The notes under the pieces were generated by a model. It was not told the origin of the DNA and did no database searches. It saw nothing but the letters and a program-made list of their open reading frames with translations. A DNA stretch of 55,811 bases, the filler included, from Jimgerdemannia flammicorona (Eukaryota), in NCBI GenBank assembly GCA_003990765.1. It is 3 parts of 3 records of this genome, joined end to end, with 100 filler letters (N's around TTAATTAATTAA, not from the genome) between each part and the next. Parts side by side here need not be neighbours in the genome. Positions count along the whole stretch, not along the records: positions 1 to 18,538 come from RBNJ01002185.1; 2 more parts are not named here. One strand, given 5' to 3'. Position 1 is the stretch's first letter; each line of letters begins with the position of its first letter. The position numbers were made by a program, and so were the translations under genes. This document shows, in pieces, positions 1-32,779 of this stretch.

Positions 1-143
1 AAAAAAATTTGGCTGTTTTGATTTTCAAATTTTCCAAATTAAATAAAAGGTCTGTAAAAGCCACTTGACCAGTTGGCTGTAAATTTAAGGCCAAGCCACC
101 CTGGCCAGCCATTGGCCATATGGCCAGCTATCTGGGATCCCTA
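1..143. mobile_element. Possible terminus of a hAT-like DNA transposon running off the left edge
   Basis: The segment ends in ...CTGGGATCCCTA (TAGGGATCCCAG on the minus strand), a TAGGG-type end typical of hAT elements. It is preceded by clustered TGGCCA/TGGCT subterminal motifs and lacks CpG. The partner TIR is outside the window. Confidence 0.35.
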
Positions 144-520
144 CTTTAAATGCCAGTTTATATTCAATGAATTGATTTTAACAATGAAATAATTATACAA
201 TTATCCAAATATCTATTAATGTTTTCATTATTATTGACATGCAACTTATTATAAAAATATTTGAGATTCTAGCCTTGAATATCTGAAATATTATACTATT
301 TGGTATAGAGCTTATTTCAGAACTTAAGTATATATATATGGTCAGGTCTTTGCAGAAGCCACTTCACAGCTTAGTATGATATCTTTGGAGTTCAAACTTT
401 TGTCAGTTCTGAAAAGATCATCATGTAACTCCATATAATTATTAGCTATTTATTTACTATCTGTAATTTTTTTTAAAATTTATAAAATATTTCTATATTA
501 ATAAAATACTACTTTCCAAT

Positions 521-581
521 GAGTGTTCCTCGAGTCGAATTGGACCTCGATTCGATTCAATTCCATTCGTTCTGAGCACTA
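521..581. mobile_element. Tiny MITE-like remnant
   Basis: Imperfect terminal inverted repeat GAGTGTTC...GAGCACTA around iterated TCGATT/TCGAAT motifs. Confidence 0.25.
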
Positions 582-1039
582 CCTTCAACGTTAGAATATT
601 TGTAAATACACACATTATTTAATATTAATGATTGGGATGACATGCTATTTGATTAGGGAGATTTTTCACGAGTGTCCAGTGCAAATTTTCCTACTTGTGC
701 TGCCTGTGGGTGAACAGGTATATATATACACAGAACGACCGCGATCACCGACGTCGTATACGGAATGATGCGACTCAAAATCGGTTATTATATTTTGGAA
801 AATGCAGTTGTATTTTCGCTGGATACTAGGAATTGTGAATGGACCCCTAACATATTCTTAAACAGACTCTTGTCAGTTTGGAATGGACCGAAATTGCTTT
901 TCACCATCATTCAAAGCAAATACTTTATTCATAATTAACAAATGATTGTCATCCGATAAGCTAGTACCCCTCTAATTGCATTCTAGAGAAAACTATGTCG
1001 TTTTCCAAATGGTATTTGCAAAGTTGGTTTATCACTACA

Positions 1040-4000
1040 TCATTCCAGTCTTCGTTGTTTGAAGAGTTGCTCGAAGAATTCGGTTATAGTGGCCACGTAT
1101 CCTTGTGACCGGTATTCGGCAACCCTGATAGGATTTTGAAGGACAATTGCATTAAGCAAAACGGAAAATTGAATTCAATGAGATTTTGTATTACTTACTC
1201 TCTATCAGAAATCTCCTTCTGGAAGCAAATGATGTCTCCATTTTGAATTTGGAATGTCGTTGTTGTTGTCATGGCATCAAACCTGCTAAATTTGACTTCC
1301 TTTAACATTCAATTTGTCAGATATAAATTGCTTAACCATGATTCAGGCTTATCTCATGCATCACATCAATATGTATCCCTACCTCAAACAATATCAGCTT
1401 AGTATTCGATGGGAACCCTTTCTTCTCGTTTAAGATGGGGATGATATCGCAAACATTCCCGTTCGGCTGCACATATAGCTTGCCACAACCCCTATTGACA
1501 CATATATTCAAGGCGACATCGGATTAATTGGTTTGGGACGATTATAACAAAGCAACAACTTCAAAAACATTAATAGCTCTACAAACTCGATTTTCTGTGT
1601 CTTCGGGTCAAAGTACTTGAGAAAGATCATCTGATATGACCAGAGTCGGCCGTTAATCGGCTTGTCAGCCTCCTCGAGATAGAGTTGCAAGGTACTCCGA
1701 TTACCCATTTTGTCTTTTATGGCAATCATTGCTACAAACCAGTGATTTAACAATGCTAAGTTAGTACAGGTATCTTATTGCACCTGAAACCGATGCCCAA
1801 CATCCGCCTTTATTTGGTGGAAAAGTAAAAAATAATAAAATACCGCAATACTCACATGAATTGGCTTCTGTCTCTGGGATCGGTTGGTCAGGCCTCACCG
1901 TCCGATTCAATCGTTTGACAAGAATCCATAGCCTAAATCTGTTGACCGGGACCTGGAAATGGTCTGCGACTGATTGTTTGAATACTGCAAACCGCTCCTC
2001 CTCCTTTACGCGAAAAGATGGTATTTCTGACTGCATTGTCTTGTCGTCGAAATTCGCCAGATCGAAACCTTGATGCACCTTGAATATTTTGTCTGTCACG
2101 ATCTGGAGAAAATTATCGCACATATAATAGATATTGTATTAGAGAAACCGTAAGTCACACGACAACTGGTGAACGCAGCTCACCTTGACGGTCAGATGCA
2201 TTTCATTTTGAGCTTTTTCCCCGTCAAGATGCCTTTCTATAATATATAATTCGGAACACGCAATCCTTAATAAAAGCTCCGGAATGCGACACTCATATGT
2301 GTTTCTCTGTATCAATGTTGCCTTGATCAGACTCTCTGGAAAAAAAGACCAATCGAAAATAATATAGAATAAAATGAAAAAAAAAAAAGGAAAAATAAGA
2401 AACGATACGCACTTATATGGGGCGGAATATCACCAGGTGACATCGATGCGAGCATCTCGTCGACATCGGACTCACGAATATACACAAGCACGTACGCTCT
2501 TGTATAACATTTTTTTGCCGCCATTGGTGGTCTTAGGGAACTGAGTTGGTTGTCATTGGGGGCCTCGTCCCCATAGTTATCCTCAAATACCTCACTGTCC
2601 GTTACAGGAATAACGCGGTTATCATCGTATATGAACCACTTGCTGTCCTTTTCGGGCTTTAGAAAAGCGAAGTATTTACCACCTTTAAGATCACCGCTAT
2701 GTGCTATGACACTGAATATGAAAAAAAAAGTGATATGTCAGCAAATCATACAACGCAAACAATTTGCAGGGTGTTATCATTTACTGTGAGTCTTCTGATT
2801 AAACACTCTTACCCATGAAGGAGATAATTGTGCCGTCTGCTTCTGTCAGCGGTCGGAGAAAGGAACTCCTCGAGGTCGATCTCAGGTGGAAATTCATGGC
2901 GGTCATTAATCTAGGCACGGACGGCATGGTTCAATCTTTTCAGAATTCGAGACTAAGCATCTACCAAGCAAGGGCAACAATATCATGGACCCACCTTTAC
3001 CATAGCATCCCTTGAAATGTCATACTCAAACCTCTTCAGTTGTATATATAGCACGGACGGGAAGCTCTCTAAATAGACACCTTTCTTGACGTTTTGCAAA
3101 CCGTAACCTCCAATTTGCTGCTTCTCCACGAACTCAGCCACATACTTCACGAAAGATTCATAGAGATTTTTGCACCCCTTGACATCGAGAAGAATGTCTA
3201 ATATATTGCGAAATCAAAAGAAGTCAAGAATCAATATTCGTCTGCGTCGGTGATTCGGAAGCTGTGCTTTCCTAGGTTACCATAATAATCCTCCTCGCGC
3301 GAGAACTCGTAATCGATGCTTATTCCTTTGCCATAAGATTCCATCTTGCCGATGAATAGTTTCTCCATGTCGCCATCGGCCGGCGTGTTCTAAAAATGGT
3401 AGGTGTCTCGTCACATAGAAGCATTGTAGCATAGAACCTGATATCGACATGCCCAATAACGTTGCATTTACTACACACCTTCATTTTCGACGCCAGGTTT
3501 TCCTGTAGAATGCGGTTAAAAAGCAAAAAGTCGTGCTCCTTGGATATGTCGCGAGAGTCCCACCCGAAACTCCCTGTCAACTCCGTTGTGCCTAATCATA
3601 CATGACGCATATCAGAATCGCCAAACAGCCGAGCGAATTCAAAATTATCCCCTACTTTTAAATGATACTAGTTGACTCATACAAGCCGTCCCAGCGCCCT
3701 TTCCAGTACTTGGCATCTTAGGGCCTACCTACCAACAGCTACTTCTGAGAACTGGAGATTATAAAACACGCGCTGTAGTGCCAAGGCAATGCTCTTGATG
3801 GGTACGTCGGATTCCGTTGGGATCTTGTAGACAGATCTACGAAAGTATTTTATCATATATAAACATTGCACGGCCGCGTTCAAGCAACTGGTCGTTCCCT
3901 GGCTTATGAGACCGACGTAGCCAGTGACCTTCTTAGAATCGTAGCTAGGTAAAAGATCACCAAAAAATGAGCTACATTTACAAATGCAAGTTATGGATTT

Positions 4001-5551
4001 GCTACATTGCACACTCACTTGATAAAGTTATGCCACAATACCCCAGTAGGGTCTTTCACGACCCGCACGAAAGCAGAAATGACGGTTTGGTCATTGTCAA
4101 TTAAGGGGTGCGAGCGCCCGTTATTTGGCTGAAACATCTCATTGATACGGTAGAACCGGGTGAAACCCCAGTCGGTCTCGTCAGCACAAAATCGATGGTG
4201 AGAATTGTGATACTCCAATTGGGTCGGATCGAACGGGTTAGACATCGCCAATGCGAACTGAGCGCACGAATGCTCTCTCTGCTCGGCCGGCCCAGGGTCA
4301 GCGAGTTGAAGATATATAGAGGTACTCTCTTTCTGGCCGTTACCATGAGGGTAGAGCAGAATATTCCTGCATGTGCGGGAGAGACGGTCGAAACCCCAGT
4401 TGAGTATGCAAAGCCTCGCCTAATAGTTCGAGTGCGAATACATGGAAAGGTAAAACATGCATACCATTTCCAACCGCCCGCCTCAAATTCCGGGCTGACA
4501 ATCCTACCAGTCAGAACACACCAACTTTCGATTTTCCAGTGGAATATTTGAAAATCTTCTACGTCGTGATCTACGTCAGGCAGTATCTGACGCGTAGGGC
4601 ATACGGTGTTCTTGCAGGCGTGATGGCAAAACGCCACATAGTGTGGAGACGTTTCTGCAAACGTGTCAACTACTTCCGTAAAGGTCTTGAGTCGAGGCGG
4701 GCAAACAAGCGTGAGGTCGAAGTGGCTCATCATTTTGAGCATCAAGGCGCGCGATGCGCCGTCTCCTAGCCGGACCGTGCCAGCGCGTCCCGCAGTCATA
4801 TCGTTAACGTCATGCAGAACTGCACGGCGCACCGAAGCAGACGGCGTGTTCTCGTTGCGTCGCCAGAACCAGTGAACGACGCACAACAGTAAGTCATGCT
4901 CGGGTGTAGAGAGAGTGGCTCTCTCGGTGAGGAGCAGCTCGAGGGACTCTTCGGATAAGTCGGACAGCTCACCGATGGCGAGTTTATGAGTGCGGAAGGG
5001 GTTGAGGAGCACGTCGTAGAGGTCCTTGTTGGCTTCGCTCCAGGGGATGGCGGCGACAGCTTCGTTGAGAAGCGGTGAGGCGACACCAGAATCAGCGAGG
5101 TCGTGCGCGCGTTCCAGCACCATCTTCATGAGCTTCTGGAGTAGGAGAAAGCTTGCCGCGCAGTATATTCCTACCGTGAAGGAAATTGTGGCAGTTTTGT
5201 CGATGGTCTCAGTGTGAATGAACCCCAGGACGATGTTGAGCACCGTGGAGGTGATGTCGTTGAGGACGACGCGATGAGAGGAACCCTCTCGCATGTTTCC
5301 GTACAGCATCACCTTGAAGACCGGACATCTTTTAAGAAATTACATGAAATAAGAGATAAGCAAAGTGTCATGAAAAGCTACAAAGTACGTGAGAATCGAA
5401 GTCGATCAAACCTTGAAGCAAGCACGGCACGGCATGCGCCTAGCTCGACACCGTCAGCGCAGACAATGGTCACATCGTGGTAAGTCGAGTCTTTCCAGAT
5501 GGAAGCGATATCGTCCTTGAGACTAAAACCGCTGTCGCATTTCTCGACCAT
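1040..5551 (-). CDS. BTB-BACK / MATH / catalytically dead USP7(Ubp15)-like domain / UBL1-2 fusion protein, 1041 aa, 15 exons
   Basis: Hand-spliced exons: 5551-5412, 5328-4465, 4366-4019, 3944-3733, 3591-3479, 3389-3281, 3197-2995, 2910-2813, 2711-2413, 2236-2184, 2102-1856, 1731-1587, 1491-1383, 1299-1199, 1124-1040. All 14 introns are GT-AG and the 3126 nt form one frame with no internal stop. BTB: DVTIVCADG..RAVLASRCPVFKVMLYGNMRE. BACK-like: LSEESLELLL..EHDLLLCVVHW. MATH: FEAGGWKWNILLYPHGN..HHRFCADETDWGFTRF. USP7 hallmarks: WHNFINYDSKK, SFGWD, QLKRFEYD, INDRHEFP, AYVLVYIRES. UBL1: HQGFDLANFDD..RTVRPD. Confidence 0.88.
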
Positions 5552-5632
5552 GTTTGTAAATGTGAGAGAAGGTAGGTTTGGTTGGGATGGGTACGAAATA
5601 AAAAGGTTTGGCGTGGTTTGACTGCGGAAAGA

Positions 5633-5638
5633 TTTATA
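5633..5638 (-). promoter_or_regulatory. Possible TATA box of the BTB-USP gene
   Basis: TATAAA on the minus strand about 80 nt upstream of the ATG at 5551. This favours 5551 over the in-frame upstream ATG at 5701. Confidence 0.25.
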
Positions 5639-6882
5639 TCTAAATCGTGGCGCAGCGTTGGTCAAAGGTCCCGCGTTTTCGTCCTTTTCCCACTTATTCA
5701 TGGACCCGCGGCTCCCACTCACTTTGTCACAAGCATCTGCTTCTCCATAGCCGCCGATGCTAAGATATCTTTAACAATGAGTCTCCCGAGTCTCAGGTTT
5801 AATATAGAATTTGGCATGCTTATAACTAACATAGGGAACAAGTCGTGCAGAAGCTTTACGTATATGGTGACCATCCCCGAACCACCCACAATCCCTTTGC
5901 GATGTGCATAATTAATTCCTGTATTACCATTTTATATAGGTCAAATATGATATTGATAATACTTTGACTTTTAGTATATAATTATATTGTGGCTCACTTG
6001 ATGTTGATTATCAAGCAAATACGACTTTCCAAAAGAATGCAGCGGACGGATTATAGATACTATTTTAATCTGTATTCTCACGGTACTTGGCAGAAACCTG
6101 AATTATTAAGGTGACCGATGGAAAACTGGTGCTTGTCAGCAGCACCAAATGTTCAACTCCGGTGTGACAAAATCCAATACAAGAGCACTGCGCGAATCCT
6201 CGTCGAATTATACTTCGAATGCCAGTTACACAATTCCCCTTGACGGTCGAGCACACAATTCCTAAGACGACCGATATCCTGAAGTCGCTCAACCCGAATG
6301 TTGGTATTGTCTTGATCAAAAAATATTATTATTGCGGTGTTCCAGAAAATCCAAGTGGAGTGAAAACCCCTATTGGATAACGAAAATAGATATATTGAGA
6401 AGATAATTTTTCCCAAGCCAATATGTGGAATGAACCTAGATTCTCCGCTACCAGCAAAAGGATCTACCTCCAACCTGCCGTCGCGCACTCGGGCTCCAAT
6501 TCTATAATGGAGTTACATATGCTTTATGAGAATTTTCTCATCAGTATTGATAACAGCAACAGGTAATGAATTGATGATACTCATTTTAAACATAGAAAGT
6601 AGTATAATAGCTGGTAACAAATATTGCAATTATGTGGAGTATTTCTATTTGTCTATTTGGTCCTTTTCTGGAAAATTGGTTAATTTTTCTGATAAAGCTC
6701 CGATTGGGCGAAATCTTCGGTCTGGTTTGGTTCTGGAATTTGGATAGCCGCCCTGCAGCAATTTGAACCCGAAAAATGGCCGACCCGACTTTGTACCTGT
6801 TGGGGTTTTTCAGTATAATCCGGGAGAAACGACTAGGGGAAGAGGAGATGTTTATTGATGCTCGAGTTACGCGTTGCAGGTT

Positions 6883-6950
6883 GATGACGTAAGAACGATG
6901 ACGTCACTGTTGATGACGTATACATCTAGTACATGTCTTTGATGACTTAA
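6883..6950. promoter_or_regulatory. Cluster of CRE/ATF-like (bZIP) motifs
   Basis: GATGACGT occurs three times, including a perfect TGACGTCA at 6899-6906, plus GATGACTT, all within 70 bp. Confidence 0.35.
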
Positions 6951-6990
6951 CCCATTCCATTTCGAGATTTTGAAATTCTGTTACTTGATG

Positions 6991-7198
6991 AAAACATGTC
7001 CAATTTTGATGTACTTTAGCTTGTTAGATTCGCCTCATTTACGCAAATCCAGTACAATCAGTATTATTAAATTTAGACATATTTTCGTATTTCAAAATTT
7101 GAGAATTTAAATCAAAAATTGAAATTCTTTTATGTGACGAAAACATGTGATGTACTTTAGCTTGTTGAATTCGCCTCATTTAGGCAAATCCAGCATAC
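6991..7198. repeat. Direct repeat pair (~60 bp) containing an imperfect hairpin
   Basis: AAACATGT..GATGTACTTTAGCTTGTT..ATTCGCCTCATTTA(C/G)GCAAATCCAG occurs at ~6991-7055 and ~7141-7198. Confidence 0.75.
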
Positions 7199-7274
7199 CA
7201 ACAATCATTAAATATGCGTCAAGTATCGGAATTTCAAAATTTGATTGAAAACATGTCAAAGTTTGATTCAAATT

Positions 7275-7640
7275 AGGCCGCCTGACCTCTCGACTTAAGG
7301 TCGCCCAGCTTTAAGGTCGCCCGACCTCTCGATTTAAGGCCACCTGGCCTCTCGACCTAAGACCACCCGGCATCTCGATTTAAGGCTGCCTGGCCTCTCG
7401 ACTTAAGGCCGCCCAGCTTTACTCTCGATTTAAGGCCACCTGGCCTCTCGATTTAAGGCTGCCCGGCTTTAAGGTCGCCCGGCCTCTCGATGTAAGGCCA
7501 CCTGGCCTCTAGATTTAAGGCCGCCCGGCTTTAAGGTCGCCCGGTCTCTCGATTTAAGGCCACCTGATCTCTCGATTTAAGGCCGCCCGGCTTTAAGGTC
7601 GCCCGGCCTCTCGATTTAAGGCCACCTGGCCTCTCGATCC
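7275..7640. repeat. GC-rich minisatellite with higher-order structure (16+23+23 = 62 bp)
   Basis: About 17 units of GGYCRCCYGGC-(CTCTCGA)-TTTAA. The last nine units form three 62-bp repeats: GGCCGCCCGGCTTTAA GGTCGCCCGGCCTCTCGATTTAA GGCCACCTGGCCTCTCGATTTAA. Confidence 0.9.
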
Positions 7641-8297
7641 AACCTCTATTTTAAAATCATTTGACTTTGATTTAAAACCACATTTTTATATGTTTAGCCC
7701 TTATTAAAACTATATAATATTAGTATTTCAATATAATAAAAATATAATTATAAAATATAAATAAATTGAAATAATTTTTTCTCTCTGCATTTGAACTACA
7801 GATAGCTAGAGCCTTGGAGACCCTTACTCAATGCTTAAGTAGACTAGTGAACTGTTTTAATTATTTTCAGCACAATTTTGCCTATAATTATCAGAAATGA
7901 TATTATTTATACTATAAGACCATTTGACCTCAGTAAATGATCTCTATTTAAGACTGTAGTTTTGGTATAAAGAGAAAATAAGAAAGATACTATACTACTA
8001 TAATGGTTAAAAAGAAAGAAGATATTAATAATTTAAAAGAAAATATTGTTTTTCACTAATTGATTTTAAAAGAGATATATTAAAATAATATAAAAAAGTA
8101 TTAAGACTTATATAAAGTTAATTAAAAGACTATAAAAGAGATTTTAAGTACTTCAGTTTGAGAAATATCAATCTACTTCTAGTTTATCTTAATTTGATAT
8201 AATAATTATATTTGAAATTTTTAAAGATTATTTAACTTCATCTCTATCTTTTGATAGAATATTTCTTTATAAGTTAAAATATAATATATATATATAT

Positions 8298-10456
8298 TAT
8301 AATATGCCAGCTCAATAGAGGTATATTATAAGATGATACTCTCAGCTTCTTTTGGTGACTTAGTGAATTGGACCCTGATCATTGGGGGGAGGTTGGGGGG
8401 CCTGAGGCTACCCATTTCAGGCATCTTGGTTGTACTTAACTGGAACTGAGAGCTGACATAGTAATGTGATCAAGGCCTGCAAGCTTGAGTAGTAGGATAT
8501 TAGAGGTCTCCTCCTGCCTCATGTATAAGTTCTTTACTCATCTTGACTAGAAGAATCAGACCCTACCCACTGTGATATACTTTGATTGGAGTTTTTTCTT
8601 TACCTGTCATTCTCTTTGGGGTAGCAGGGGCTATTCTATTTAGCTCAGATATGGCCTTATATATACATTAGGATCTCAGGTATAAGCTTTCAGTCATTGG
8701 CATATGACTGGGTTCCCCCTGATGGTAGGGAAAGCATAGTGTGCAGAATGAGGTACAGGCCAACATAGGTCCTACTGTACTTGGCATAGTTGAGCTATTG
8801 GACAATAGCTAGTCTAGGTTGATGGGGGGACAGTACTTGATGGGTGGTGGGAGAGGGCTTTGGCCTATATAGTCTAGGTTCTCTTTTAATAAAAATCTAA
8901 AGAACATTGAGTCTGTTAAAAAAAAAAAAAAAAAAAAAAGGTATATTATAAGATTAGAGTAGCTATGTAGATTGGCTTGAGCCCTTAGTTACTTTGTCAA
9001 AAAGTAACAAAATATTCAATAGTTTCTCTTTTATTAATATAATATAGATAATCTTAATAGATTTCTAATTAGGTATAGATTTGGCAGACTTCTTTAATAT
9101 TTCAGATTTTGTATAATATAGTAAATTAGTAGATACTAGTGATTCTTTAGACTTTATCTAATAAGTAGACCAAATATATAGTAGATTTCTTAAAAATTTT
9201 CAGGCTTAGTCTGGTAATTATATCAAAAATTAAGTTTTCAGATATAGTTAGATAAGTATATAAAAATCAGATCTTCAGGCTTAGTCTGATATATATGTGA
9301 TCCAAAATCAGCAGACTTCTTTTGATAAATAAAGTTATATTGGTTGACTATAAATAAGTTTAGTATAAAGATATATCTGACTAACTGGCTTAGTTATGTT
9401 AAAATATAATAGACTTCTTTATATTGAAAGATAGATCAGAGTAGAAAAGAAAACTTATAACTTCTTAGTAGTAGCTTATTGATAAATATTCTCATCTTAA
9501 GTATTTCAGATATTTGACTTTTGCCTTTTTTAACTTTTTGAACTGAGATTTATTTACTTAAATCTCTGGAGTATTTTATATAAGTATGATTACTATCTAA
9601 TTACTATCTGGATAATTATAAAATATATAGTAATATTAATTTAGAATGATATGACCTATTGTTTATAAGTGAAAATAGTATTCTATAGAGTCTGAATAGT
9701 ATTCCAGAAAATAAACAATATTCCAAAGTATGAACAGTATTCTAGAGTATAAATAGTATTTATTTTAATTTAATATATTAGACTATTTATATTATTAGTA
9801 TATAATATAAGAGATAATTATGTGAGATTATTATATTATATATTTAGTATATTATCTGACTATGTTATAATGTTTACTCATTATATTAGTTTTTACTAAA
9901 GAATGATATATCCTCAGACTGTCCTTTAGTTATTATTCTAATATTCATAGATATTTTTGATATCTATATCTATATTATCATCATCTTCTATATCTAAGTT
10001 ACTCTATTTAAGAGATTTTTCTTCTTTCTCAGAAAATAGGACCTTGATACTACTGATAAAAGATTGATAAATAGATATATTAATTCATTATATATCACTT
10101 AGATAGAATTAGATCTAGAGTGAGAGCTGAAGAGTTTCTCTTATATAGTCTGTCTACTATAGTGATATTTCTTTAGATCTGACCAGTAAAGTTTCTTATA
10201 TATATAGGCTTAGTCTTTTATTGAGAAGTCTTATAACTATTCTCCAATTCTATAATAGATCTATAGTTAGTAGATCTGTAGCAAATATTATATATTGGTG
10301 AAGATTTTTGAATATATTTAGAATTATTAGATATAGTTTCTTTAGACTTCTCAGAATTATGGTAGTAGAATTGAAAGTGCTTGAAAAGAGCTGAGGATAA
10401 GAGTCTGGAGATACAGATCAATCTCTTGATTTATTATATTAATATGTAGCAGATAT
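8298..10456 (-). mobile_element. Gypsy family-1 copy A: 3' LTR (~8298-9883) plus adjacent 3' internal sequence, degenerate
   Basis: Colinear homology with 10457-12140 (for example GCTCAATAGAG..TAGTTACTTT.TCAAAAAGTAA, TCCTCAGACT..CTTTAGTTATTATT, GCTGAGGAT.AG.GTCTGG). Truncated where copy B begins. Confidence 0.65.
8335..8939 (+). mobile_element. Poly(A)-tailed retroinsertion (5'-truncated LINE or SINE) with 15-bp TSD
   Basis: AATAAA at 8888 and an A22 tail at 8918-8939. Identical flanking GGTATATTATAAGAT at 8320-8334 and 8940-8954. The empty site is visible in the homologous LTR at ~10470-10500. Confidence 0.88.
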
Positions 10457-13400
10457 TGTAATATATGGGCTCAATAGAGATAAATTACAAGACTGAGAGT
10501 TTATATAGTTTAACTTGAGTCTCTAGTTACTTTATCAAAAAGTAATAAAATATTCTATAATTTCTGATATTAGTATTTAGTAGTATAATAGTCAAATCTG
10601 AATATAGTAATCAATTTCCTTATTAAGACAGTTCTTGGGTATAGTGGCAATTTGTATAGTATGAGTGGTCTTCAAAAGTATATATGTAATTTCTACATAA
10701 CAATCATATTCCAAAAGTATACAATTTCTGTATAATAATTGTATTTCCAAAAGTATATAATTTTTATACAATAATCTCTGTATTATATAGGTAATTTGAT
10801 AGTATTCTTTAATAAGTGAGTTGGTGGGCTTTTTGAATAATAATAACTTAGATAACTCAATTGATATGGATTCTTGAGCAAAGTTATATCAAAGACTGGC
10901 TTTATTTATATAAGGTTATATTGAGAGACTGGTTTTACTATAAAGTTATATCAAATAGACTGACTTTGTATTGAGAATATAGATAGACTTCTCTGACTAA
11001 TAAAGTTATATCAGAGACTGACTTCATTTGTATAAACTAAGTTATTTACTATAAAATTATATCAAATAGACTGGCTTTATAATAAGGTTCTTATAGCAGT
11101 AAAGTTCTTTACTCAAACTTGGTAGCAAACTCAGACTTTGTATTGAAAAGTAGACCAGAGCAGAAAATAACTTACAACTTTTAGCAGTGACTCATAAGCA
11201 GGTTTCTCCTCTTAAGTATATCAGACAATTGACTTTTGCTTTTGATTTTCAGACTGAGATTTATTTACTATTATCTCTGAGATATTTTATATAATTTTAG
11301 TTACTATCTAGTTACTATATAGCTAACTATAGATTGTTATTTATAGAAAAGAGGTGGACATTTACTATTAAAGTGATATTTACTATAAGAGTGATATTTA
11401 CTATCAGAGTGATATTTACAATCAGAATGATATTCACTATTAATAATATTTCCTTCTTTAGCTATCTGGATTATTTATATAAGTTGATATAGTAGGAAAA
11501 TCTTAATTGTCTAGTATACTTGATATAATATATAGCTAAATTATAGTAACTAATTTAAATAGTAACTTGATATGTTTTTCTGCTAGCTCATCATATCAGT
11601 CTATACTAAAGAATGGTCTGTCCTCAGACTACTCTTTAGTTATTATTTCAATATCTATAGATATCTTCTGCATCTATACTAGTACCATTATCTCTTTCTA
11701 TATCTGGGTCACTCTATTTTAGTTTTGGGTCTTCTTTCTATTCTTTGGAAAATAGAATATTTACTTATTAGAGAATGCTCTAAAAGATCATCTCATTTAT
11801 CTAATACATATTAGTCAGGAAAAAATAGACTTATAATAAGACTCTTTCATTTTGTCTATATATATATATAAGATATAGGGCTTTTTTGTAGTTTGAGCTT
11901 TTTTAGAGAATTATACTGACTAGTTCTCTTATATATAATTATTCTTGTAATAGTTGTCTAATATTATAGAAAATCTGTAGGTAGTGAATCTATAGCAACC
12001 TCTGGATAATAATAAGGTTTTTTTGGTACTTTTGGATTAATTGTATTAGAGTTCCTTTGAGTGAGTGAAACTGAGACAAAGGAATAGATAGGAGCTGAGG
12101 ATGAGGGTCTGGGATACTGGTCAATTCTCTGGATTATTATATAGAGATCAAATATATCTTGAAATAGTTATTATATACTGAAGTATTCAGGGTTCATCTT
12201 ATATTTTTTAAATAGATGCTAGTTTATCTAACATTATATATAAGATAAGGTCCTTCCTATTTAGGCTCTAGTTTGGTAGCAAAGTTTGTTTCAATCATAC
12301 TTCTCCAGACTAGTACTTAATCTCTAATCTTAATCTTTTAATTCTTCTACTTCTAGTCATAATACTTCTTTTATCTTTTCTGAGTCTTGATTATCTGAGC
12401 TTAGACTTAATTATATAATTTTTCTGCCTTTTTGAGAAGATCTCTAAAGTTCTCATAATTAGCTGTTTTGGCTTTCTTGATAAACATCATCTCAAATAGC
12501 TTTTATTTGATAGAAATAATAGGGATATTCCAAATTTTCCATAGGATCTCAGATAAGTAGAGATCTCAGTTAGTAGGATTAACTTGGGTAAGTTCTTTCT
12601 TAATGGTCTGGTTCATTTATTCTATCATACTATTGATTTAGAGATAGTATGATATGGTTTATTTGAGATGAATCTTATGAATTTAGACATAACTTATAAT
12701 TATATTATTGATGAATTTTTTGCCTCAGTTAGAAATAAGTTCTTTTAGAGATCTATATCTGAGTGTAAGACTATAGAGGAGGCCTACAATAGTTAAGACA
12801 TTAGCAATTTCTATTGAGAAAGCTTCAGGTCATTTGGTCAGATATTCAATAAATATTAGAATATATTTATTCCTTCTTGATATAACTGGTATAGATCTAA
12901 TAACATCTACTCTCCATCTTTGAAAAATATTATCTGGTAGTATAATTAATTATAGTAGTATTGATAGTTCTTCTTTTCTTAGTACTTCTGGCAGATGTCA
13001 TATTTTTTAAGTATATCTCTAACTTATATTCTGAGATTAGGCTAATGTTAGTATATTGTTTGTAACTTTTCTTCTATATTTGTCTATCTTTGGTAAGCTT
13101 TCTGATATTTCTTTCAGATGAGGTCTTCTTATATCTTAATGGTTATAGGAGCTTTCTTTAGAGTATAGTTTCAGTATATCCTTTTTTTAGTTTATTAAAG
13201 TTGATAGAAAAGTATATCAATATTGTTGTAAGCTTTTCCTACTTTATAGATAATGGTGATTTTGTAATCTTATAAGATAAAGATCCAGTGGACAAGAGTT
13301 CCAGTAGATTTCTTATAGTTATATAGCTATTTGAGAGTAATATAATCAGTTATTAGAGTGAATATTTTTCTAATAAGATAGTGGTTGAACAGAATGACTG

Positions 13401-15009
13401 CCCATATAACTATAAGGTATTCTGGTTTAGTACTACTATAATTGTCTTATTGCTGATTGATAGCTCAGCTTATATAAGCTATCATATAGTATTATTAATC
13501 AGGCTAAGACTACTTCAAGACTATCTTTGAAAGCATCTGTATATAAGATGAATAGTTTCTGTAGATTGGACTATATAAAGATTGGTACAGAGGTCATATA
13601 GTACTTGATTTCTTTGAAGACTAGTTTTTATAGTTTCAACTTTATATAATACTTCTTTTTTAAAAAAGATTTAGATTGAATCAGAAATTTGGACAAAGTT
13701 CTTAATAAATCTTCTATAGTATGATACTAATATCTGAAATAATAGTATTTTCTTCAGGATCTTAGATACTGGTCAGTTGTTGATCTTCTTGATTTTCTTT
13801 GGGTCTATATAGATTTCTTCTTTTAAAACTATAAATTTATGAAATTCAAGTTTCTGTTTTTCAAAGTAATATTTCTTAATATTGAGTCTCAGATGGTTCT
13901 TGCAGATAAGCTAAAAGAATTCTGCTAGGTAGTATAAGTATTCTTTGAAATTTGCCAAATAGATATTAGAATTATCTATATATACAATTAGACAGTAATA
14001 GATTAGTAGGCCATAGACTGAATTCATCATTCTCTAGAAGATGGGGGAGCAGGGTATATTATAGAGCTCAAAGGATATTTGGAGATATTCAAACAGTTTT
14101 CCTAGAATGAAAAAGACTGTTTTCTAGATATCCTTAGAATTTATAGAGATTTTATAGAATTCTACAAAAAGGTCTATATTGCTGAAGTATCTGATATTTT
14201 ATAATTAGTCTAAGAGGTTATCAATTCTAGACAAAGAGTAGGCATCTTTTTTGGTAACTAAGTTGAGCTTTCTATAGTCTATATAGAGTTTTCATTCTCT
14301 TTTCTAGAGTATAATAAGTATAAGACTGATCTAGAAACTGATAGAGGATCAGATGACTCTATTGTCTAAGAGTTCCTAAATATGTTCCTTCTCAAATATC
14401 TTTAAGTGATGGGGTATTCTATAAGGCTTTCTACCAGATGAGTATTTCATTTTCTATATTTATACTATAATGGTATGATAGATTATATAGCAGATTGCTA
14501 TAATCTATAATAAAGATATTCTAGTATTTATAAAAGAGTTCTACTAGTTGTTGCTATTATTGAGATATCAATTCTTTTCCAATATTAGTAGAAGGCTTCA
14601 ATTTCTCCTAGATTGTAGAGAGGCCTTTCCTTTCTTCTAAAATCTTTTGCTATTTTCTGATAGGTTTAGTTTATAAACTTCTCTGTATATTCAATTGAAA
14701 TAGAGTACCAGATAGTCTATAATGGTTCCTTTCAGCAGAATGAGACTTTTCTAGCTTTGGTTGGTTGCTTGAAAGTATACAAAGATCATCTTATCAGAAA
14801 AATATATATCCTTCTATATCCAGGTTCTTAATATCCTCATTGAGTTTAAAGAAGAGATTTTTTAGATCAGGTGATACAAATATTTTGAAGATAGTCTGCT
14901 CTCTTAGTTTTAGAATAAGATTCTTATATAGCTTGACTGATTGCCAGTATACTTATTAAGGAGTATCTTTCTGAAAATAATTAACCTAGAGAAGGTACAC
15001 TTTCTTCTT

Positions 15010-15390
15010 ATCCAAGCTTTCAAATCCTTCAGTTTTTCTTATATCTTAAGTCAGTTTGGAGACCTCTTATAGCTGGGGAGCCTTGACTTCTATGAAGATT
15101 GTTTATATAATCTTTTGTCCTTTATACATAGATATAGTATTATTCTATACTACTATTATTTAAGATGATCTTGATTTTGCTTATATATCTAGGGTCAATT
15201 ATTCTTCTTTTTATAGTATTCTTTGTCTAGCAAGTCTAGACCTTGAGACTAATTAGATATAAGTTTCTTTGAATAACTGTATAGCTAGTCCTATTGTTTC
15301 AGAATTGATAGATTTATTTTTAAGGTTATAAAGATCATATCTCACAACTTACTAGTGAGCTTTAATTAGAGATTTAGTCTTGAGATGTAG
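15010..15390 (-). pseudogene. dut: dUTPase domain relic in Gypsy family-1 pol
   Basis: Degenerate motifs in the correct order: (G)YDLY; GLAIQLFKETYI*LVSRSRLA; IIDPRYISKIKIIL; KGQKII; RKTEGFES. These correspond to GYDL, RSGLA, GVIDxxYxGEI, RIAQ and RGxxGFGS with G>A/C>T changes. Confidence 0.7.
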
Positions 15391-18300
15391 TAAGATATAT
15401 TGGGTAATATCTTTACTGAGTTTGGATTGTTCTTGGGTTGAGACCTCAGTGAAGATAAGCCCCCAGACTCTAAGATTGAGGTGTGGTCATCTGGCCTCAG
15501 TAGAGGGATCTCAGAGATAATTAATTTCTCTTTTTCTATAGGGTCAAGGACTTTTATGAAGTTGCTAGTATCTTCTATTCATCTTTAATAAGTTATATAT
15601 CTGATGAGAGCTAGAATGTCTTCTCTCAGATTATAGATCTTGAGAGCCTTCTTCTTTGATTTCTTGGCTTGGTTTTTTTAGATCTAAGCTCTGTCATCTT
15701 CTCTCTTTAGTATATATATAGTAATATTCTGACTAAGATGAATCTTCTGATATAGACAGTTTTGGCAATCTAGGTGTTTTCTATAATTACAGTTTCCCAT
15801 TACTTGAAAATAAAGTTCTTAATTATTGATCTCTTGTTGTCTTGAAAATTAGTATCCATCTTGATTATAAGTTGAGAGAAGAGTGGCTAAGGGTTGTACT
15901 TTTGTTCAGATAAAGTGGTCTTATCTATTGACTTGTTTTTTTAACATTGTGGTGAATTCCTGGAAAGTAGTTATCTATATAATTATAATCAGGAGTTCAG
16001 ATCTACAGTATCTCTACCTTTCTTATTGATCTAATAGATAGTACTAATAGCATAGTCTTGAGAGAGTGAAAGATCTTTTAATACTGATATCTTCCTAGCC
16101 AGAAGGCTCTTTCCTAGTATATTTCTTATCTTCAGACAATAGTAACTATACTTATTCCTTTCAGTATTCCAGGGGTCATTATCTTCTGATGGTGTCTAGT
16201 AAGAGTCATCTCAGGGAATAAGTTCAGAGAGCTCCTCCTGTTCAGGAACTTCTTATTTGGAGATTTCTTCTTTAGATATTTCTTGACTCTAAATTGCTTA
16301 TACTTCTATAGCTTCAGGTATAAATGTTTTCAGAGTGTAGTTATATTTCTTCTTTCTTTTTCTATACTCAGAGCAGACTATACCAGATAAATTTCTTATT
16401 TCAATAATCTTAGAGAAATTTTCAGGACATTTGTATCTTTTGAGACAGGTAGGTCATCCTTTGATTTATCCTACAATAGTTCTAATTATAATGGAGATGA
16501 TATCTTTGACCCATATATTATCTTCTGGTCTATTATCTATTAGGTTGATTTGTGGGTTGAGTCTGGAATCATTTCTATCTTCAGATTCTTCTTCAGATTC
16601 TTCTTCTTCTTCTATAGTAGATTTTTTACTACTGGTATAGTCTTCTTAGATAATAACCTTCTTCTTTTTCTTTAATTGCTTATAGCTGATCACCTTAATT
16701 CTATACTTCTTTTCTCTGTGGTCAAATATAAGTACCTATTGACCAATATCAATGACTACATTCATTTTCTTCATCCAGTTGGTACCAAGAATTATAACAT
16801 AGGTGATAGCTTTAGTAATAATAGCTTTTAGAATGAAAAACTAGATTTATTACAAGAAGATAGCTAAGTTTCATACTTCTCCAAGGGTTGAGTTCAGGCT
16901 CCATCTGCTACTATAATGCTGAGGTTAGATAGTTCATCAATAGACTACTGAAGGGTATCTAGAAATTATTTGGCAATAATACAAATAGCTACTCCTGTAT
17001 TAATGAGGATTTTCACTTTTTGTTCTTCAATATCTCTATACAGATATGTACTGACATATCTTTCTACAGCCTGAATGATAATTGGTATTGGTTTTTATTG
17101 TAGAATTGGGACTTGGCCAGTACTGGACCTAGTGGTTCTCAATAGTTTATTTTGAACTTCAGTAGGTATCAGTTGTAGGAACTATAGGAGAGATACTTCT
17201 ATCTTAGCTTTATGAATCTTTTGTCAGACTTCATTGTAGATGTCTCTGAGTATGGTCTCAGAGTATACTTCTTCTTGGGCTTTGGGATAGTAGGCTTTTA
17301 TTCTTTCTACTCTATTTCTTCATTCTCTAGTAGTAATTTATTTTTTTTTGAGAATAAAAGGTGAGGGGTATCAGAGAGATATTTCAATCTACTCTTCTTT
17401 ATTTTCTTTATCTTCTTCTTAGATAATTCTTCTACTGGTATTTCTGGATGAACTTTCTACTTATCTCTTTCTTTTCTCAGCTGAATAGACTATTTTCCTA
17501 GTAATAACCTTAGTTGGATATAGATCTAAGTTACTATAGTCTTTACTGTTGCTTTCTTCTTCAAAGTTTTTGACAGAGTGAGCTTCAGTCTTCTTATACT
17601 AGATTTTATTCTTTTGATTTAGTAGTTCTGAGTCTCTTTGATCACTTTTTCTATTGTCACATTCTGTAATATAGTGTCTAAACTGTCTACAGTAGAAACA
17701 TTGAACTTGAGCTCTGTTTTGAACAGAATACTTTCTTTCTTCTTATAGCTGATATATAGCTCCTATTATCTCTAAGTGGGTAATCTTGATTTCTTTATAG
17801 TATATACTCTCTGTTATTCTACTGATAGCTTCAATTTTTATATATGGTGAGTTTTCTAATTGATCTAATTTAGAGTTAAGGTCTTAGATTTTATTTCTCT
17901 CTTTCTCTACTCTTTGGCTGGCTTTTCTTCTTCTAATTTTTCATATTTTTGAAGAAGTCCTTGTAGGGTTTTAATCAGAAGGTCTTGCTTATCATCTTTT
18001 CTATCATAATTACTTCAGATAGTTTCTTGTCTAATATTGAAAAATCCTTAAACTGTATCTACTTGTTTTTCAGATTTTCTGATATCTAGAGTACAGATAT
18101 ACTGGACAATATTTGGATGAATCTCATTTATGAAGATCATTGGACCTATGATGTCTTGATTGGTGGTATTGAACTCAGCTACATATATTCTCTTTTGAAT
18201 TCTAGTAAAGAATATCTTGAATAATTCTTTGAGATTTATCTTCATCTTTATGATAGATTCTCAGACCTTATAGTGAGTTTTATTTTCTATATATTTATTG

Positions 18301-18711
18301 ATAAGCTAGTAGATTATAGCTTCATATTTTGCTTTCCAGATTAGTACTATATAGATAGCTATTCTAATATCTAAATATACATCACTTGCTACTTGAGCAA
18401 AAATTCTTTAAGCTGGTTCTCTGAGCTTGATCTAGTAGATAGTGATTTTTCTCTAGGCTGAGAGATTCTTTAGAGCTGTAATTTCTTCAATTCTATCAAG
18501 GAATTCTCTTGGATCTTCTTCTAGATATCTTTTTTTTTNNNNNNNNNNNNNNNNNNNNNNNNNNNNNNNNNNNNNNNNNNNNTTAATTAATTAANNNNNN
18601 NNNNNNNNNNNNNNNNNNNNNNNNNNNNNNNNNNNNNNTTTTTTTTTTTATAGTCACTTGGACTCCGCCTTTATTACCAGTCTATGAATAAATATACATC
18701 ATTCCGACCCA

Positions 18712-21700
18712 CTATCCAATCCCCACTGGGGGGCCCCTCCCTACTCCCTCATGAATGAAGATCACTCTTTCACCCACTACCCCCACTCTCCCCCCACTTT
18801 GTCCACAGATTTTCTCCACTAAGCGGTGCCTCCGACCACCCCGCATTCCCCAACCCAGCCACCAGCCGGTTAAGGTATCTTCCATAAGCCTATGCCATCA
18901 CAGCAGCCTGTCCCCCAAGCTCTGCCTCCACCCATCCTCAAAAACAAACAGCCAATGACTGGCCAACCCCACCCAAATTGCCAAAGCCCAACCTAAAGTA
19001 AGCCACTCCTTCCCTACCCCCCCTACCAATCTAACCCGCAAGTCCTCCCATCGCCCCTGTACCTCATCACTCCTACCCCGCACCCCTAAGCGATCCCCAA
19101 TTGCCTGCCAAAACTCCCCCAACACCTCACACTCTCCTAGCCAATGTTCTGGCATCTGTACATAACCCCCCTCCTGCCCTACATTATGGCACTCCTCACA
19201 GTCGAAACAACCCCCTACAACCAGGTGCCCTGAGCAAAAATTGAGCATAACGTTCCTCTGCAGCATGCGCCACCAGACCACCCAGTACTTTGGTGGCAGC
19301 CATGCTCTCACTGCAGCACTCCAGGTCCAAACACTACGCCAGTTCCACTCTTCGCCAATTCCAACTCCTTGCCAACCGCTAGGCCACAGATCCTGGCCTG
19401 GTCCCCTTTGGCATTCCATTCCATCACCAATGTCGAACTCAACTAAAGGAGCACCACCCAGCAGTATGCAGTCCCATCTCCACATCGCCGGGTCCCAATC
19501 CTCCTCACCCTCATTTCCCTGCCAACGAATACCAATGCGGTGCACTCCTTCTGCAATTCCCCACCAAAATCCTTTATATCGTAGTTGGGCAGTGTTCTGA
19601 AGCCCAACCAAGGAGAGGAGATCACCAGTTGAGCCCCTTGGAGATGCCTGCCTCTCCCATAACTTCTGTAATAGAGGAACCCATCCACCTCCTCTCAACT
19701 CCACCGTCTGCTTCAGCCACCATGCTCTCAAGCAGTGTAACCATTTTGGGAAGTCAACTAGCCCAAGACCGCCTCTTGCCACTGGTAGGGACAAGGTCTC
19801 CCAACTAATCTGACTCTGCCTGCCAGCCCAAATCCATCCCTTCGCCGACTTCATCAATCTCTTCACTACCCAGGTTGGGAAGTCCAGATGATATGCCAGG
19901 TACCATAGCTTAGGCAGCCAGTAGACATTCAAAATCGAGACCCGCCCTGCCAGAGAAAAATGTCTACCCCCCCAACTTCGCAGAGCCTCCTCCCAGATTC
20001 CAATCCTCTGCTCCCACCAAAGCCTGGGCAGAACTGACCCATAAACTGACAAGTAGATACCTAAGTACCGCACTGCTTCACCAGTGGGGACAATTGTTCC
20101 TATAACCTCTCCTCCCACCAGGCCGTTACCAAGTACCATCATCTCACACTTATGCCAATTCAGCTTAGCTCCAGAATGCTCCTCATACCACTCCACAGTC
20201 CTCTTGAGCTCCTCAACATCAGCAATCGAACCCAAGTCCACCACCATGTCATCAGCAAAGGCCTCAACTTTCCATCCTATACCAAAGACAGAGAGCCCCA
20301 CTATCCTCTGCCTAATCCAGTCCATAAGGGGTTCCAGGGAAAGAGCATACAAAATGGGGGACAATGGATCCCCCTGGGGCACTCCCCTTCCCAAGGGGAA
20401 TGCTACCCCTCTATGTCCATTACACATGAGTGCAGCCCTACTCCCTTCCAGCAGGCTGACCATTGTCGACTGGAATTGATGCGGTACCCCTATTCTATCC
20501 AAGACTTTCTCCAGCCAGACTCTCCGCACCCGGTCATAAGCCTTCTCCTGGTCCAAGAAAACTAGATGCCCATCCAGTCCACATGCCCTCACCCCTTCAA
20601 TGATGCCATGCACCCAGGCAGTACCATCCCTTATGAGCCGACCACCTACAAATCCCCTCTGCTCAACACCCATGACTTGCTGGGCCACCTTCTGTAGTCT
20701 TGCCACCACCACCTTAGTTACCAACTTTCTGTCCATATCTAGCAGCATTATCGGCCACCAGTTCTTCCAATCCTCCTGCCTTCCTTTGTTTTTGTAGAGT
20801 AGCGTCACCAGCCCAAGGTCCTGTTCCCCCACCCATCTTCCTGTCTGTAGAATAAGGTCACACAATGCTGTCATCTCTCCCATCACCCCTGGGACTTCAA
20901 CCATTCACTTCCAAAAGTCCCAGGGCAGCCCATCCTCCCCAGGTGCTGTACTGGACGTTGTCGCGGCAAGAACCTGGTGGATCTCATCCTCCTGTACAGG
21001 CATCACCAGGTCCCCTAGCCCTTCAACTTGTGGTGGGTGCCAATCCTCCAATGTTCGTTCAATTGTAGCGGCATCCACCCCACCCTCCTCCTCACTCCAC
21101 AATCCACTCCATCTCTCCTTCAGCGATCCAAGAATGTCCTGTACACCATGCACCAGTACACCCTCAGAGTCCAATACCCCTTCCCACCGTTGCTGGACCC
21201 GCCTCGCCCTAAGGGCCCTCGTAAGAAGCTTGGAAGGCCTCTCTCCTTCCTCCAGATCCTGCCAACGAAGCTGTGCTGCCAAACTCTGTACCCTTGTCTC
21301 TTCCTCCTCCCGCAACACCTGTTGAAGTTCCCCAACTTCCATTTTCGCCCTCAATAATCTCCAATCTTCTTCCCCCTCCAACATCGTCAGCCTTGCCCAC
21401 TCTTCCAGGAGCCCCGTCAATCTAGCAGAGGCCCAGCGCACTCTTTGTTTTCGCCATTTCCCTGCCTCCTTGCCAGCCTCCTTCCAGTAAATCCTGGCCA
21501 TTTCCTTCATCCTCATCCACCGAGTCCCAACTGCAGCCCCTTCCTGCCTCCAGTTCTCCACCCTCCACTGAATGTCTTTAGCCCACTCATCCCACCGGGT
21601 CTTGTCATCTAACAATGAGGAATTGAGGCGCCAATGTCCAGGCCCATCCCCACTTCCCCCAAAGCACCCCTGTCCCAAAAGCCCCCAGTGATCCGACCAT

Positions 21701-32700: not shown

Positions 32701-32779
32701 TCCAATAGTATATGTGTGCTTGTTCTGGTCCTTATCTTTCTTATGCTCAAGTTCAGTAATCTTGGTAGTGGCATAGGCT

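Follow-up and report, generated by a model that had tools for sequence, protein, structure and literature searches.

The gene studied here, on the minus strand of a stretch of DNA from Jimgerdemannia flammicorona (hereafter the window; 55,811 nucleotides, filler included, from assembly GCA_003990765.1), is an expressed USP7 duplicate. It has lost the catalytic residues of this deubiquitinase, is fused to a BTB domain and probably works as a non-catalytic, possibly CUL3-type adaptor. The features on which this reading rests are collected in table 1.

Table 1. Features of the BTB-fused USP7 duplicate, with positions counted along the window.
Feature	Position	Strand	Details
Whole coding gene	5551-1040	-	15 exons, 14 introns, 1041 codons + TGA
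Exons 1-5	5551-5412, 5328-4465, 4366-4019, 3944-3733, 3591-3479	-	
Exons 6-10	3389-3281, 3197-2995, 2910-2813, 2711-2413, 2236-2184	-	
Exons 11-15	2102-1856, 1731-1587, 1491-1383, 1299-1199, 1124-1040	-	
BTB/POZ domain	5118..5494	-	aa 20-117, interrupted by intron 1 at 5411-5329
Helical linker, possibly BACK-like	4584..5117	-	aa 118-295; common to P0005
MATH/TRAF domain	3932..4556	-	aa 305-455; starts in exon 2, continues in exon 3
DWGF motif of MATH	4173-4162	-	kept
USP7-type USP domain without catalytic residues	2413..3944	-	exons 4-9, aa ~456-790
Cys box	3884..3904	-	AGC 3904-3902 (N218>S), AGT 3889-3887 (C223>S), TGC 3886-3884 (Y224>C)
Degenerate QHD box, EHDFLL	3521..3538	-	aa 540-545
His box	2624..2701	-	His 2701-2699 (H456 kept), AAA 2686-2684 (H461>K), AAA 2677-2675 (H464>K)
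Triad Asp, D481	2626-2624	-	kept; within the His-box feature
Proximal UBL region	1040..2236	-	exons 10-15, ending at TGA 1042-1040

The gene model forms a single open frame of 1041 amino acids with all 14 introns bounded by GT..AG, in keeping with the earlier note, which had reported no frameshift and no splice loss. Two sequencing runs were taken as RNA by guess, and their contigs do show joints of the GT..AG type: introns 1, 6, 9, 10, 12, 13 and 14 are visible as CT..AC joints (at least seven) among the contig joints listed, and a further contig (X2 record 9) is consistent with both intron 7 and intron 8. Spliced contigs from the two runs match the window exactly at 949-1123 joined to 1198-1298, 1598-1731, 2459-2711 and 2995-3197. 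The locus is transcribed and spliced. An additional small exon inside 2237-2412 was ruled out, as RNA contigs join 2236 straight to 2413. The gene is surrounded by an AT-rich stretch without any other long ORF.

The identity of the USP domain is clear from Pfam UCH matches in exons 4, 7 and 9 and from phmmer matches of the exon translations to solved structures of human USP7 (E-values of 9e-17 and 1.5e-13). In exon 4 (70 aa), residues 1-67 align without a gap to residues 205-271 of the human USP7 chain 9plr_C, and the codons read directly from the window place serine at both N218 and C223 and cysteine at Y224. Exon 9 (99 aa) aligns to human residues 453-538, with H461 and H464 both replaced by lysine, D483 by asparagine, and D481 and D482 kept. 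The alignment to C223, H464 and D481 that the earlier note proposed thus finds the first two replaced and the third retained, and the changes it had described (C>S and N>S in the Cys box, His>Lys, QHDVQE turned into EHDFLL, the triad Asp spared) are all there. In the numbering of the window protein, Ser470 occupies the position of C223, followed by Cys471, and Lys708 that of H464. Judged by these residues, a USP domain devoid of its nucleophile, its general base and its oxyanion Asn is not a canonical cysteine protease; with the fold retained, the catalytic residues lost, the frame open and the gene expressed, it has the attributes of a USP-fold pseudo-enzyme, a type of protein rather than a lineage. 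The QHD box, a contact of the ubiquitin tail, is degenerate too, making ubiquitin binding by the dead domain doubtful.

How far these losses centre on the active site can be gauged against 117 canonical USP7 representatives. Among 49 columns of the USP domain conserved in at least 98% of them, the window protein matches at 37. The Cys box accounts for five of the 12 that it has lost and the QHD box for two, and H464 is another. Loss affects three of four catalytic positions (N218, C223, H464, D481), against nine of the 45 other conserved columns (Fisher one-sided p = 0.041), so the concentrated loss of catalytic residues asserted by the earlier note appears to be real but modest. Outside the USP domain, columns conserved in at least 90% are kept throughout (3/3 in MATH and 8/8 in the UBL region). 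Among close representatives, the nucleophile is Cys in 132 of 146, Asn occupies position 218 in all 146 that can be read at that site, and Tyr or Phe is found at position 224 in 146/146; N>S and Y>C are accordingly unique to the window copy.

Reads bear on the altered codons unevenly. The Lys codon at the H464 position lies inside a contig without a single differing letter (X1 record 4, 2459-2711). Contigs covering position 3885 all read T there (encoding Tyr), and those listed differ from the window at 8/156 and 20/185 letters, which points to an origin from paralogues. Among the contigs listed, none matches the Cys box (3884-3904) exactly, and the reads neither confirm nor contradict its codons.

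The N-terminal part of the protein is foreign to USP7. Pfam BTB is detected in exon 1 (18.2 bits, profile positions 6-32) and exon 2 (25.2 bits, profile positions 35-102), together spanning positions 6-102 of the 110-position profile. As a proxy for this region we used P0005, a BTB protein that is 54% identical to the window protein over aa 1-290 and matches SPRY only weakly, below the threshold. Its best match is the BTB domain of SPOP (E = 2.2e-6), followed by KBTBD2/4, KLHL3/22/26 and KEAP1, with BTBD6 also near the top. The triplet M-R-E (aa 59-61, 5294-5286) of the window protein aligns, via M-L-E of P0005, with M-E-E of the CUL3-contact loop of SPOP; the motif by which this loop contacts CUL3 is hydrophobic-x-Glu. 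The window BTB is of the CUL3-adaptor subtype (SPOP/KLHL-type), and CUL3 binding is predicted.

The linker behind the BTB domain is harder to classify. A profile search of the exons found no Pfam BACK at E ≤ 0.01, and exon 2 matched no solved structure at E ≤ 0.1; clusters of BTB-BACK and BTB-BACK-MATH type gave Atlas feature scores of 0.90-0.91, which serve as a lead only, and the fold predicted for the exon-2 product from a three-row alignment is unusable (pLDDT 36.8). In a word-index search for longer relatives with a BTB architecture, made outside the 'near' length class, P0005 alone matched exon 2; shorter annotated models for the N-terminal region may exist. The MATH domain that follows scores 38 bits with Pfam MATH_2 on exon 3 (64.2 bits in the paralogue P0048). 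Because exon 2 holds the BTB domain from its second segment on, the linker and the start of MATH, the junction of BTB to MATH lies inside one exon. The earlier note had overlooked that a BTB is fused on, that the protein ends early within the UBL region and that the gene belongs to a multi-copy family.

At its other end, where an active USP7 has five UBLs, the window protein has neither the distal UBL domains recognised by Pfam USP7_C2 nor a C-terminal tail. Over 186 aa of the proximal UBL region, P0003 is 100% identical to it and P0199 97%, and in both of these the Pfam domain USP7_ICP0_bdg covers profile positions 1-170 of 241. The paralogues P0002, P0199, P0208 and P0216 end at most about 15 residues from the same point, and this early C-terminal end is common to paralogues only 60-66% identical. 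A frame-shifted remnant of the distal UBL domains past the stop was ruled out with 14 USP7-family proteins searched against window positions 1-1200 (tblastn E ≥ 0.16).

The family comprises P0001, P0002, P0048, P0199, P0208 and P0216 of J. flammicorona. In our tree the window copy forms a clade with P0002 and P0048 (SH-aLRT 100) that is sister to P0172, a canonical-looking USP7 of the same species (99). The stem of this clade measures 0.34 (vs 0.094), and the terminal branch of the window copy 0.077. Going by this topology, the window gene is a lineage-specific duplicate derived from the canonical USP7 of its own lineage. The nucleophile position varies among the duplicates, with Ser in the window copy and its sister copy P0001 and Asp in P0048; P0001 retains Asn (218) and Tyr (224), and P0048 has Tyr. 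On the sequences compared, N>S and the new Cys are private to the window copy. The earlier note was therefore right that a Cys (TGC) follows one residue after the lost nucleophile, but not if this is taken as a conserved relocated nucleophile, since P0001, P0048 and the contigs over 3885 all have Tyr there. The EHDFLL-type change of the QHD box is common to P0001 and P0002, P0048 being more degenerate in that box, and P0002 still has the base His (GGHY), which makes H>K recent. Duplicates of this kind recur across fungi, as 14 of the 146 close representatives lack the Cys; elsewhere the residues found at the two positions are Gly, Ser, Asp or Thr with Tyr, Gln, Arg, Asn or Thr.

The window copy could instead be a young redundant duplicate without a function of its own, drifting towards a pseudogene and open only for lack of time, which we regard as unlikely though worth serious weight. 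Its terminal branch is short, and over that branch an open frame is only weakly unlikely under neutrality (P = 0.04-0.07). Against expressed paralogues we count 11 synonymous and 24 non-synonymous codons (35 changed, from the 40 of 167 differences listed), corresponding to an omega of about 0.64-0.86, not different from 1 (p = 0.15-0.40), and recent constraint on the window copy is accordingly weak. Two of its four real differences from P0001 fall on residues invariant in 146/146 relatives, and hits at N218 and Y/F224, invariant even in other dead paralogues, fit relaxed selection on this copy; the AT-rich surroundings may be counted on the same side. What speaks against drift is that none of the 14 splice-site pairs or 1041 codons is broken, that spliced contigs match exactly, that the early C-terminal end recurs in the divergent paralogues, and that open frames persist in the family as a whole. 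Over an amino acid branch length of 0.46, neutral decay would be expected to produce 16-19 nonsense changes, and the probability of none is 6e-9 to 1e-7, so that an open frame over the divergence of the family from canonical USP7 is very unlikely under neutral decay. The suggestion of the earlier note, selection for a non-catalytic scaffold rather than neutral decay, is supported as regards the open frame of the family as a whole, but not for the window copy itself.

That the domain is still a hydrolase, acting through a Ser470/Lys708 dyad or the neighbouring Cys471, strikes us as highly improbable. Ser and Lys do sit at the exact positions of the nucleophile and the base, and in the portion of the review PMC10919355 consulted, USP39 and USP52, 'pseudo-DUBs' with a USP fold, are claimed to be active through non-conserved residues. 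The pair is nevertheless not conserved even within the family, with Asp at the nucleophile position of P0048 and His at the base position of P0002, and it varies likewise among the Cys-less paralogues elsewhere; Cys471 is missing from P0001, P0048 and all RNA contigs over that position, and the losses extend to the QHD box and the oxyanion Asn. We give next to no credence to the altered codons being assembly or sequencing errors in a normal USP7 gene. The lack of an exact contig over the Cys box among those listed, with another base read at 3885, would be compatible with errors, but the Lys codon is contained in an exact RNA contig, the independently predicted P0001 has Ser at the nucleophile position (P0048 has Asp), 12 of the 49 conserved columns differ and not one or two alone, and J. 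flammicorona has another USP7 of canonical appearance, P0172.

The adaptor reading can be placed among known systems. The window protein shares the order of MATH, USP and proximal UBL with USP7/HAUSP (Ubp15 in fungi, UBP12/13 in plants) and is 55-58% identical to canonical fungal USP7s; like them it retains most of the fold core along with D481 and H456, and it differs from them in the replaced nucleophile Cys, general-base His, oxyanion Asn and QHD box, in the extra N-terminal BTB and linker and in the missing USP7_C2 and tail. The combination of MATH with a BTB of the same subtype, including the aligned M-x-E triplet, recalls the cullin-3 substrate adaptors SPOP, plant BPM and nematode MATH-BTB proteins. 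Unlike in these, the BTB of the window protein precedes MATH, which derives from USP7 and is followed by a dead USP and UBLs. MATH-BTB families of nematodes and plants are multi-copy and fast-evolving. BTB genes of arbuscular mycorrhizal fungi are present in high copy, as stated in part of PMC8647823. USP39/Sad1 and USP52/PAN2, as portrayed in a section of PMC10919355, resemble the window protein in carrying a USP fold without the canonical Cys/His inside a larger multi-domain protein. The window protein is not an orthologue of either but a recent USP7 derivative, and the domains that accompany its USP fold (BTB, MATH, UBL) are those of the ubiquitin system rather than of splicing or deadenylation.

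The gene is a USP7/Ubp15 duplicate that has lost its cysteine-protease residues and distal UBL domains and to which a SPOP/KLHL-type BTB and linker were joined within one exon. The BTB domain would most likely dimerize and dock on a cullin-3 ligase, and binding surfaces would be offered by MATH, whose DWGF groove is kept, by the inert USP fold and by the proximal UBLs. A remover of ubiquitin would in this way have come to serve a ubiquitin ligase, as its scaffold or its substrate receptor. The dead domain is found in an architecture that suggests ubiquitin attachment rather than removal, that of a cullin-3-type adaptor.

A broader and more tentative possibility is that USP7 duplicates have repeatedly and independently been turned into substrate-recognition modules of ubiquitin ligases, in Jimgerdemannia, Gigaspora and Mesostigma. 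In the Jimgerdemannia lineage a BTB would have been fused to MATH, dead USP and UBLs. Three Gigaspora proteins (P0231, P0224 and P0235), known from automatic annotations only, have the arrangement BTB/BACK-MATH-UBL: as in the window protein, a BTB lies upstream of a USP7-derived MATH and a proximal UBL region with the same end point, and DUB activity would be impossible, but the USP domain is absent, not dead. The BTB regions of the window and of Gigaspora show no similarity at E < 1e-3, and the USP7-derived part of the Gigaspora proteins falls within a distinct clade of Cys-less paralogues from Gigasporaceae, so the BTB fusion there looks independent; a different BTB-BACK would have been joined to MATH and UBLs and the USP deleted. 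In the alga Mesostigma, P0145 reads U-box-kinase-MATH-dead USP, suggestive of a U-box and kinase fused to MATH and a dead USP. If this possibility is true, the targeting parts of a deubiquitinase have been reused for ubiquitinating clients protected by the parent enzyme, and the dead USP fold is an intermediate stage towards loss.

Pseudo-deubiquitinases are known mostly from animals and yeast, and a full-text literature search found no paper on a USP7-derived pseudo-deubiquitinase, on dead USP7 paralogues or on BTB-USP7 fusions. Among the sequences surveyed here, Cys-less USP7 paralogues prove common in fungi and above all in mycorrhizal Mucoromycota, a group with large BTB gene families according to part of PMC8647823. 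If the adaptor reading holds, the window gene and its relatives offer a testable case of an enzyme family converted into an antagonistic scaffold, with the intermediate stage (dead USP) and the end stage (USP deleted) both found in living species. They also draw attention to genes that are at present annotated automatically as fragments or as hydrolases.

The gene that carries the dead USP7-type domain was modelled by combining three-frame translation, splice signals and homology, and comprises 15 exons forming a single open frame of 1041 codons. Its 14 introns, as many as the earlier note had counted, are 74-176 bases long and all conform to GT..AG, in agreement with that note's statement that neither a frameshift nor a loss of splicing had occurred. 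The encoded protein begins with a BTB domain, and exon 2 codes for this domain, a helical linker of ~180 residues and the start of the MATH domain in continuous frame, so the BTB-MATH fusion is independent of any splice prediction. A BACK or 3-box in the linker after the BTB domain is at most putative: single-exon scans did not detect Pfam BACK, Atlas matches to BTB-BACK clusters provide a lead only, and the predicted fold was unusable. The architecture combines the kinds represented by USP-fold pseudo-enzymes and by BTB-MATH adaptors, a combination of which we found no description. An extra small exon with a 57-base intron would be frame-compatible within intron 9, and was rejected as RNA contigs of both sequencing runs skip all 176 bases.

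Features of the window, with Pfam domains as detected in exon-by-exon scans
Feature	Position	Strand	Detail
Gene	5551-1040	minus	15 exons
BTB	exon 1	minus	Pfam, profile positions 6-32
BTB	exon 2	minus	Pfam, profile positions 35-102
MATH_2	exon 3	minus	Pfam
UCH	exons 4, 7, 9	minus	Pfam
Intron 9	2237-2412	minus	rejected extra exon
Stop codon	1042-1040	minus	TGA
Exact RNA contig pieces	949-1123 plus 1198-1298; 1598-1731; 2459-2711; 2995-3197		0 other letters
Tandem repeat	7310-7638		units of 23 and 62 bases
Joins	18539-18638; 37177-37276		44 N, TTAATTAATTAA, 44 N
Two adjacent long ORFs	18898-22368	minus	Pfam RVT_1 (101 bits), Exo_endo_phos (40 bits)
329-aa ORF	32140-33129	minus	dUTPase domain (78 bits)

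Alignment to human USP7 confirms that the catalytic residues of the USP domain are altered. No gaps are needed to align the product of exon 4 with chain 9plr_C (1102 residues; query 1-67 to 205-271), and this product has Ser at both C223 and N218, as the earlier note had read, and Cys at Y224. The exon-9 product, aligned to residues 453-538, has Lys at H461 and also at H464, the latter again as proposed, and retains the triad D481; the QHD motif is likewise altered, reading EHDFLL. For a broader reference we used 117 canonical USP7 representatives, taken from the best 150 matches that P0001, the sister protein, gave in an exhaustive phmmer search. Among USP-domain columns at least 98% conserved in this set, 37 of 49 are retained; of the 12 lost, five belong to the Cys box and two to the QHD box, and another is H464. 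Catalytic residues were lost at a higher rate (3/4) than other conserved columns (9/45; one-sided Fisher p = 0.041), while all columns at least 90% conserved in the MATH (3/3) and UBL (8/8) domains are retained. With Cys, His and Asn replaced, the canonical mechanism is lost. The shifted Cys, whose reach to the active site the earlier note proposed to check, is not supported as a relocated nucleophile: it is not conserved, and P0001 retains Tyr. We consider residual hydrolase activity very improbable, because the neighbouring Cys and the Ser/Lys dyad are both unconserved.

The nearest named proteins come from Jimgerdemannia flammicorona, an Endogonales fungus. P0003 is identical to the window protein over 186 aa; P0001 and P0199 represent a sister copy with four real differences each, mismatches at mis-modelled exon borders being excluded; and P0048, P0208, P0002 and P0216 are more distant paralogues (79%, 66%, 64% and 61% identity, respectively). 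Every one of these public models is a fragment, and we came across none that shows the full architecture, the exon-2 search among longer proteins returning only P0005. The phylogenetic tree was a quick maximum-likelihood inference with SH-aLRT support only, from 44 hand-chosen rows out of about 235 proteins, leaving out near-identical copies and C-terminal fragments and trimming the first 290 residues of the window protein, 300 of P0231 and 420 of P0145. It unites the window protein, P0002 and P0048 in one clade (support 100), sister to P0172 (support 99), a canonical-looking J. flammicorona USP7 (QHDVQE, GDLHGGHY) whose model begins just past the Cys box. This position, together with the family's longer stem (0.34 vs 0.094 for P0172), shows a duplication within the lineage followed by faster evolution than in the parent gene. 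The catalytic sites differ among paralogues: the Cys box of P0001 (GLINQGTTSYLN) keeps Asn and Tyr and has Ser for Cys, that of P0048 (GLINEGATDYLN) has Asp for Cys, and P0002 retains His (GGHY) and shares EHDFLL with the window. The QHD box thus underwent an early change, and drift at the nucleophile position followed. H>K is a late change, as are N>S and Y>C, the last two apparently private to the window copy; among the best 150 representatives, Asn218 occurs in all 146 that have a residue there, with Tyr (142) or Phe (four) at position 224.

Whether the gene is kept or decaying has different answers for the family and for the window copy. The amino acid branch length from the split to the tip is 0.46 over 751 codons, for which neutrality predicts 16-19 nonsense changes (probability of none 6e-9 to 1e-7); the family as a whole has therefore been under selection for an open frame, which counts against simple decay. 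Four paralogues terminate no more than about 15 residues away from the stop in the window, and tblastn against window positions 1-1200 found nothing similar to a distal UBL remnant downstream; hence the truncation is an old one that the copies have in common rather than a fresh lesion. For the window copy itself, decay of a redundant duplicate is a less likely alternative, and several results speak against recent constraint. On the terminal branch alone an open frame has a probability of 0.04-0.07 under neutrality; the 40 displayed differences of 167 fall in 35 codons, 11 synonymous and 24 non-synonymous, giving an omega of about 0.64-0.86 that is indistinguishable from neutral (p = 0.15-0.40); and two of the four differences from P0001 strike invariant residues. 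The earlier preference for selection over neutral decay is supported for the family, and recent constraint on the window copy is weak; the pseudo-enzyme reading is supported for the former and plausible for the latter.

Spliced contigs of the gene are present in two runs, with seven introns visible as CT..AC joints. Read evidence for the Lys codon comes from the exact piece 2459-2711, within which it lies, and record 9 of run X2 joins 2448-2711 to 2995-3197 with 98 letters between, the length of exon 8. Expression extends to both copies, as there are window-exact contigs and also an X2 contig with variant T991K of the sister copy. The contigs over 3885 all read Tyr; those listed are assigned to paralogues because of their other letters (8/156 and 20/185). 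In both runs, contig depth summed across the exons for the BTB domain and linker (4508-5491) is 5-20x that of the USP exons, and many contigs there are only 90-95% alike, which suggests that the BTB module has numerous paralogues that are expressed.

The N-terminal module gives the most information on function. Over the first 290 residues of the window protein, identity to P0005 is 54%; P0005 is an unnamed BTB-domain protein whose SPRY match is weak and below threshold (22.7 bits vs a cut-off of 26.3). Its best match is the SPOP BTB domain (E 2.2e-6), followed by KBTBD2/4, KLHL proteins and KEAP1, known as cullin-3 adaptors, with BTBD6 also near the top. The M-R-E triplet of the window BTB aligns with the M-E-E loop of SPOP, which is the cullin-3 contact, and the MATH domain retains the DWGF motif, part of the USP7 substrate groove. 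Judging from domains and motifs, the protein would most likely be a BTB-mediated dimeric adaptor, probably partnering cullin-3; its binding surfaces would be the MATH domain, the inert USP domain and the proximal UBL domains, all derived from USP7.

Cys-less USP7 paralogues are frequent. Among the best 150 representatives, Cys is absent from 14 of the 146 with a residue there (Gly 5, Ser 5, Asp 3, Thr 1), coming from Gigaspora, Racocetra, Dentiscutata, several Agaricomycetes, a rust fungus and the alga Mesostigma; His is lost in ten of them, kept in one and gapped in three, and no representative has lost His while retaining Cys. In a second search, 25 of 47 matches with a residue there lack Cys, many from Glomeromycotina, and in the 44-row tree the losses are spread over several separate clades. 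Further proteins in which USP7-derived parts are predicted to be fused to ligase-type domains lie outside the window, all of them automatic gene models. Mesostigma P0145 joins MATH and a dead USP domain to a U-box and a kinase. Gigaspora P0231, P0224 and P0235, nested within a Gigasporaceae clade of Cys-less paralogues, have a BTB/BACK-linker-MATH-UBL layout with the USP domain cleanly missing and terminate at the same point of the UBL region; their BTB region shows no similarity to that of the window at E < 1e-3. A full-text literature search found no report of dead USP7 paralogues or BTB-USP7 fusions. One review counts USP39 and USP52 as pseudo-DUBs with a USP fold and presents their inactivity as now under debate (PMC10919355), and another article describes high-copy BTB/POZ gene families in Rhizophagus (PMC8647823).

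The window joins three unrelated stretches of 18538, 18538 and 18535 bases, between which blastn found no similarity, and physical linkage to the gene extends over 1-18538 only. The flank there is AT-rich, with no ORF of at least 90 aa from 6488 to 18538. The tandem repeat lies about 1.8 kb upstream of the gene start, its 62-base unit present in 3.5 copies at 92%. In the second stretch, the dUTPase ORF may belong to a retroelement or be a gene of its own, and the two adjacent long ORFs look like a LINE-type retroelement; GC skew around the latter is strongly negative (-0.36 to -0.46).
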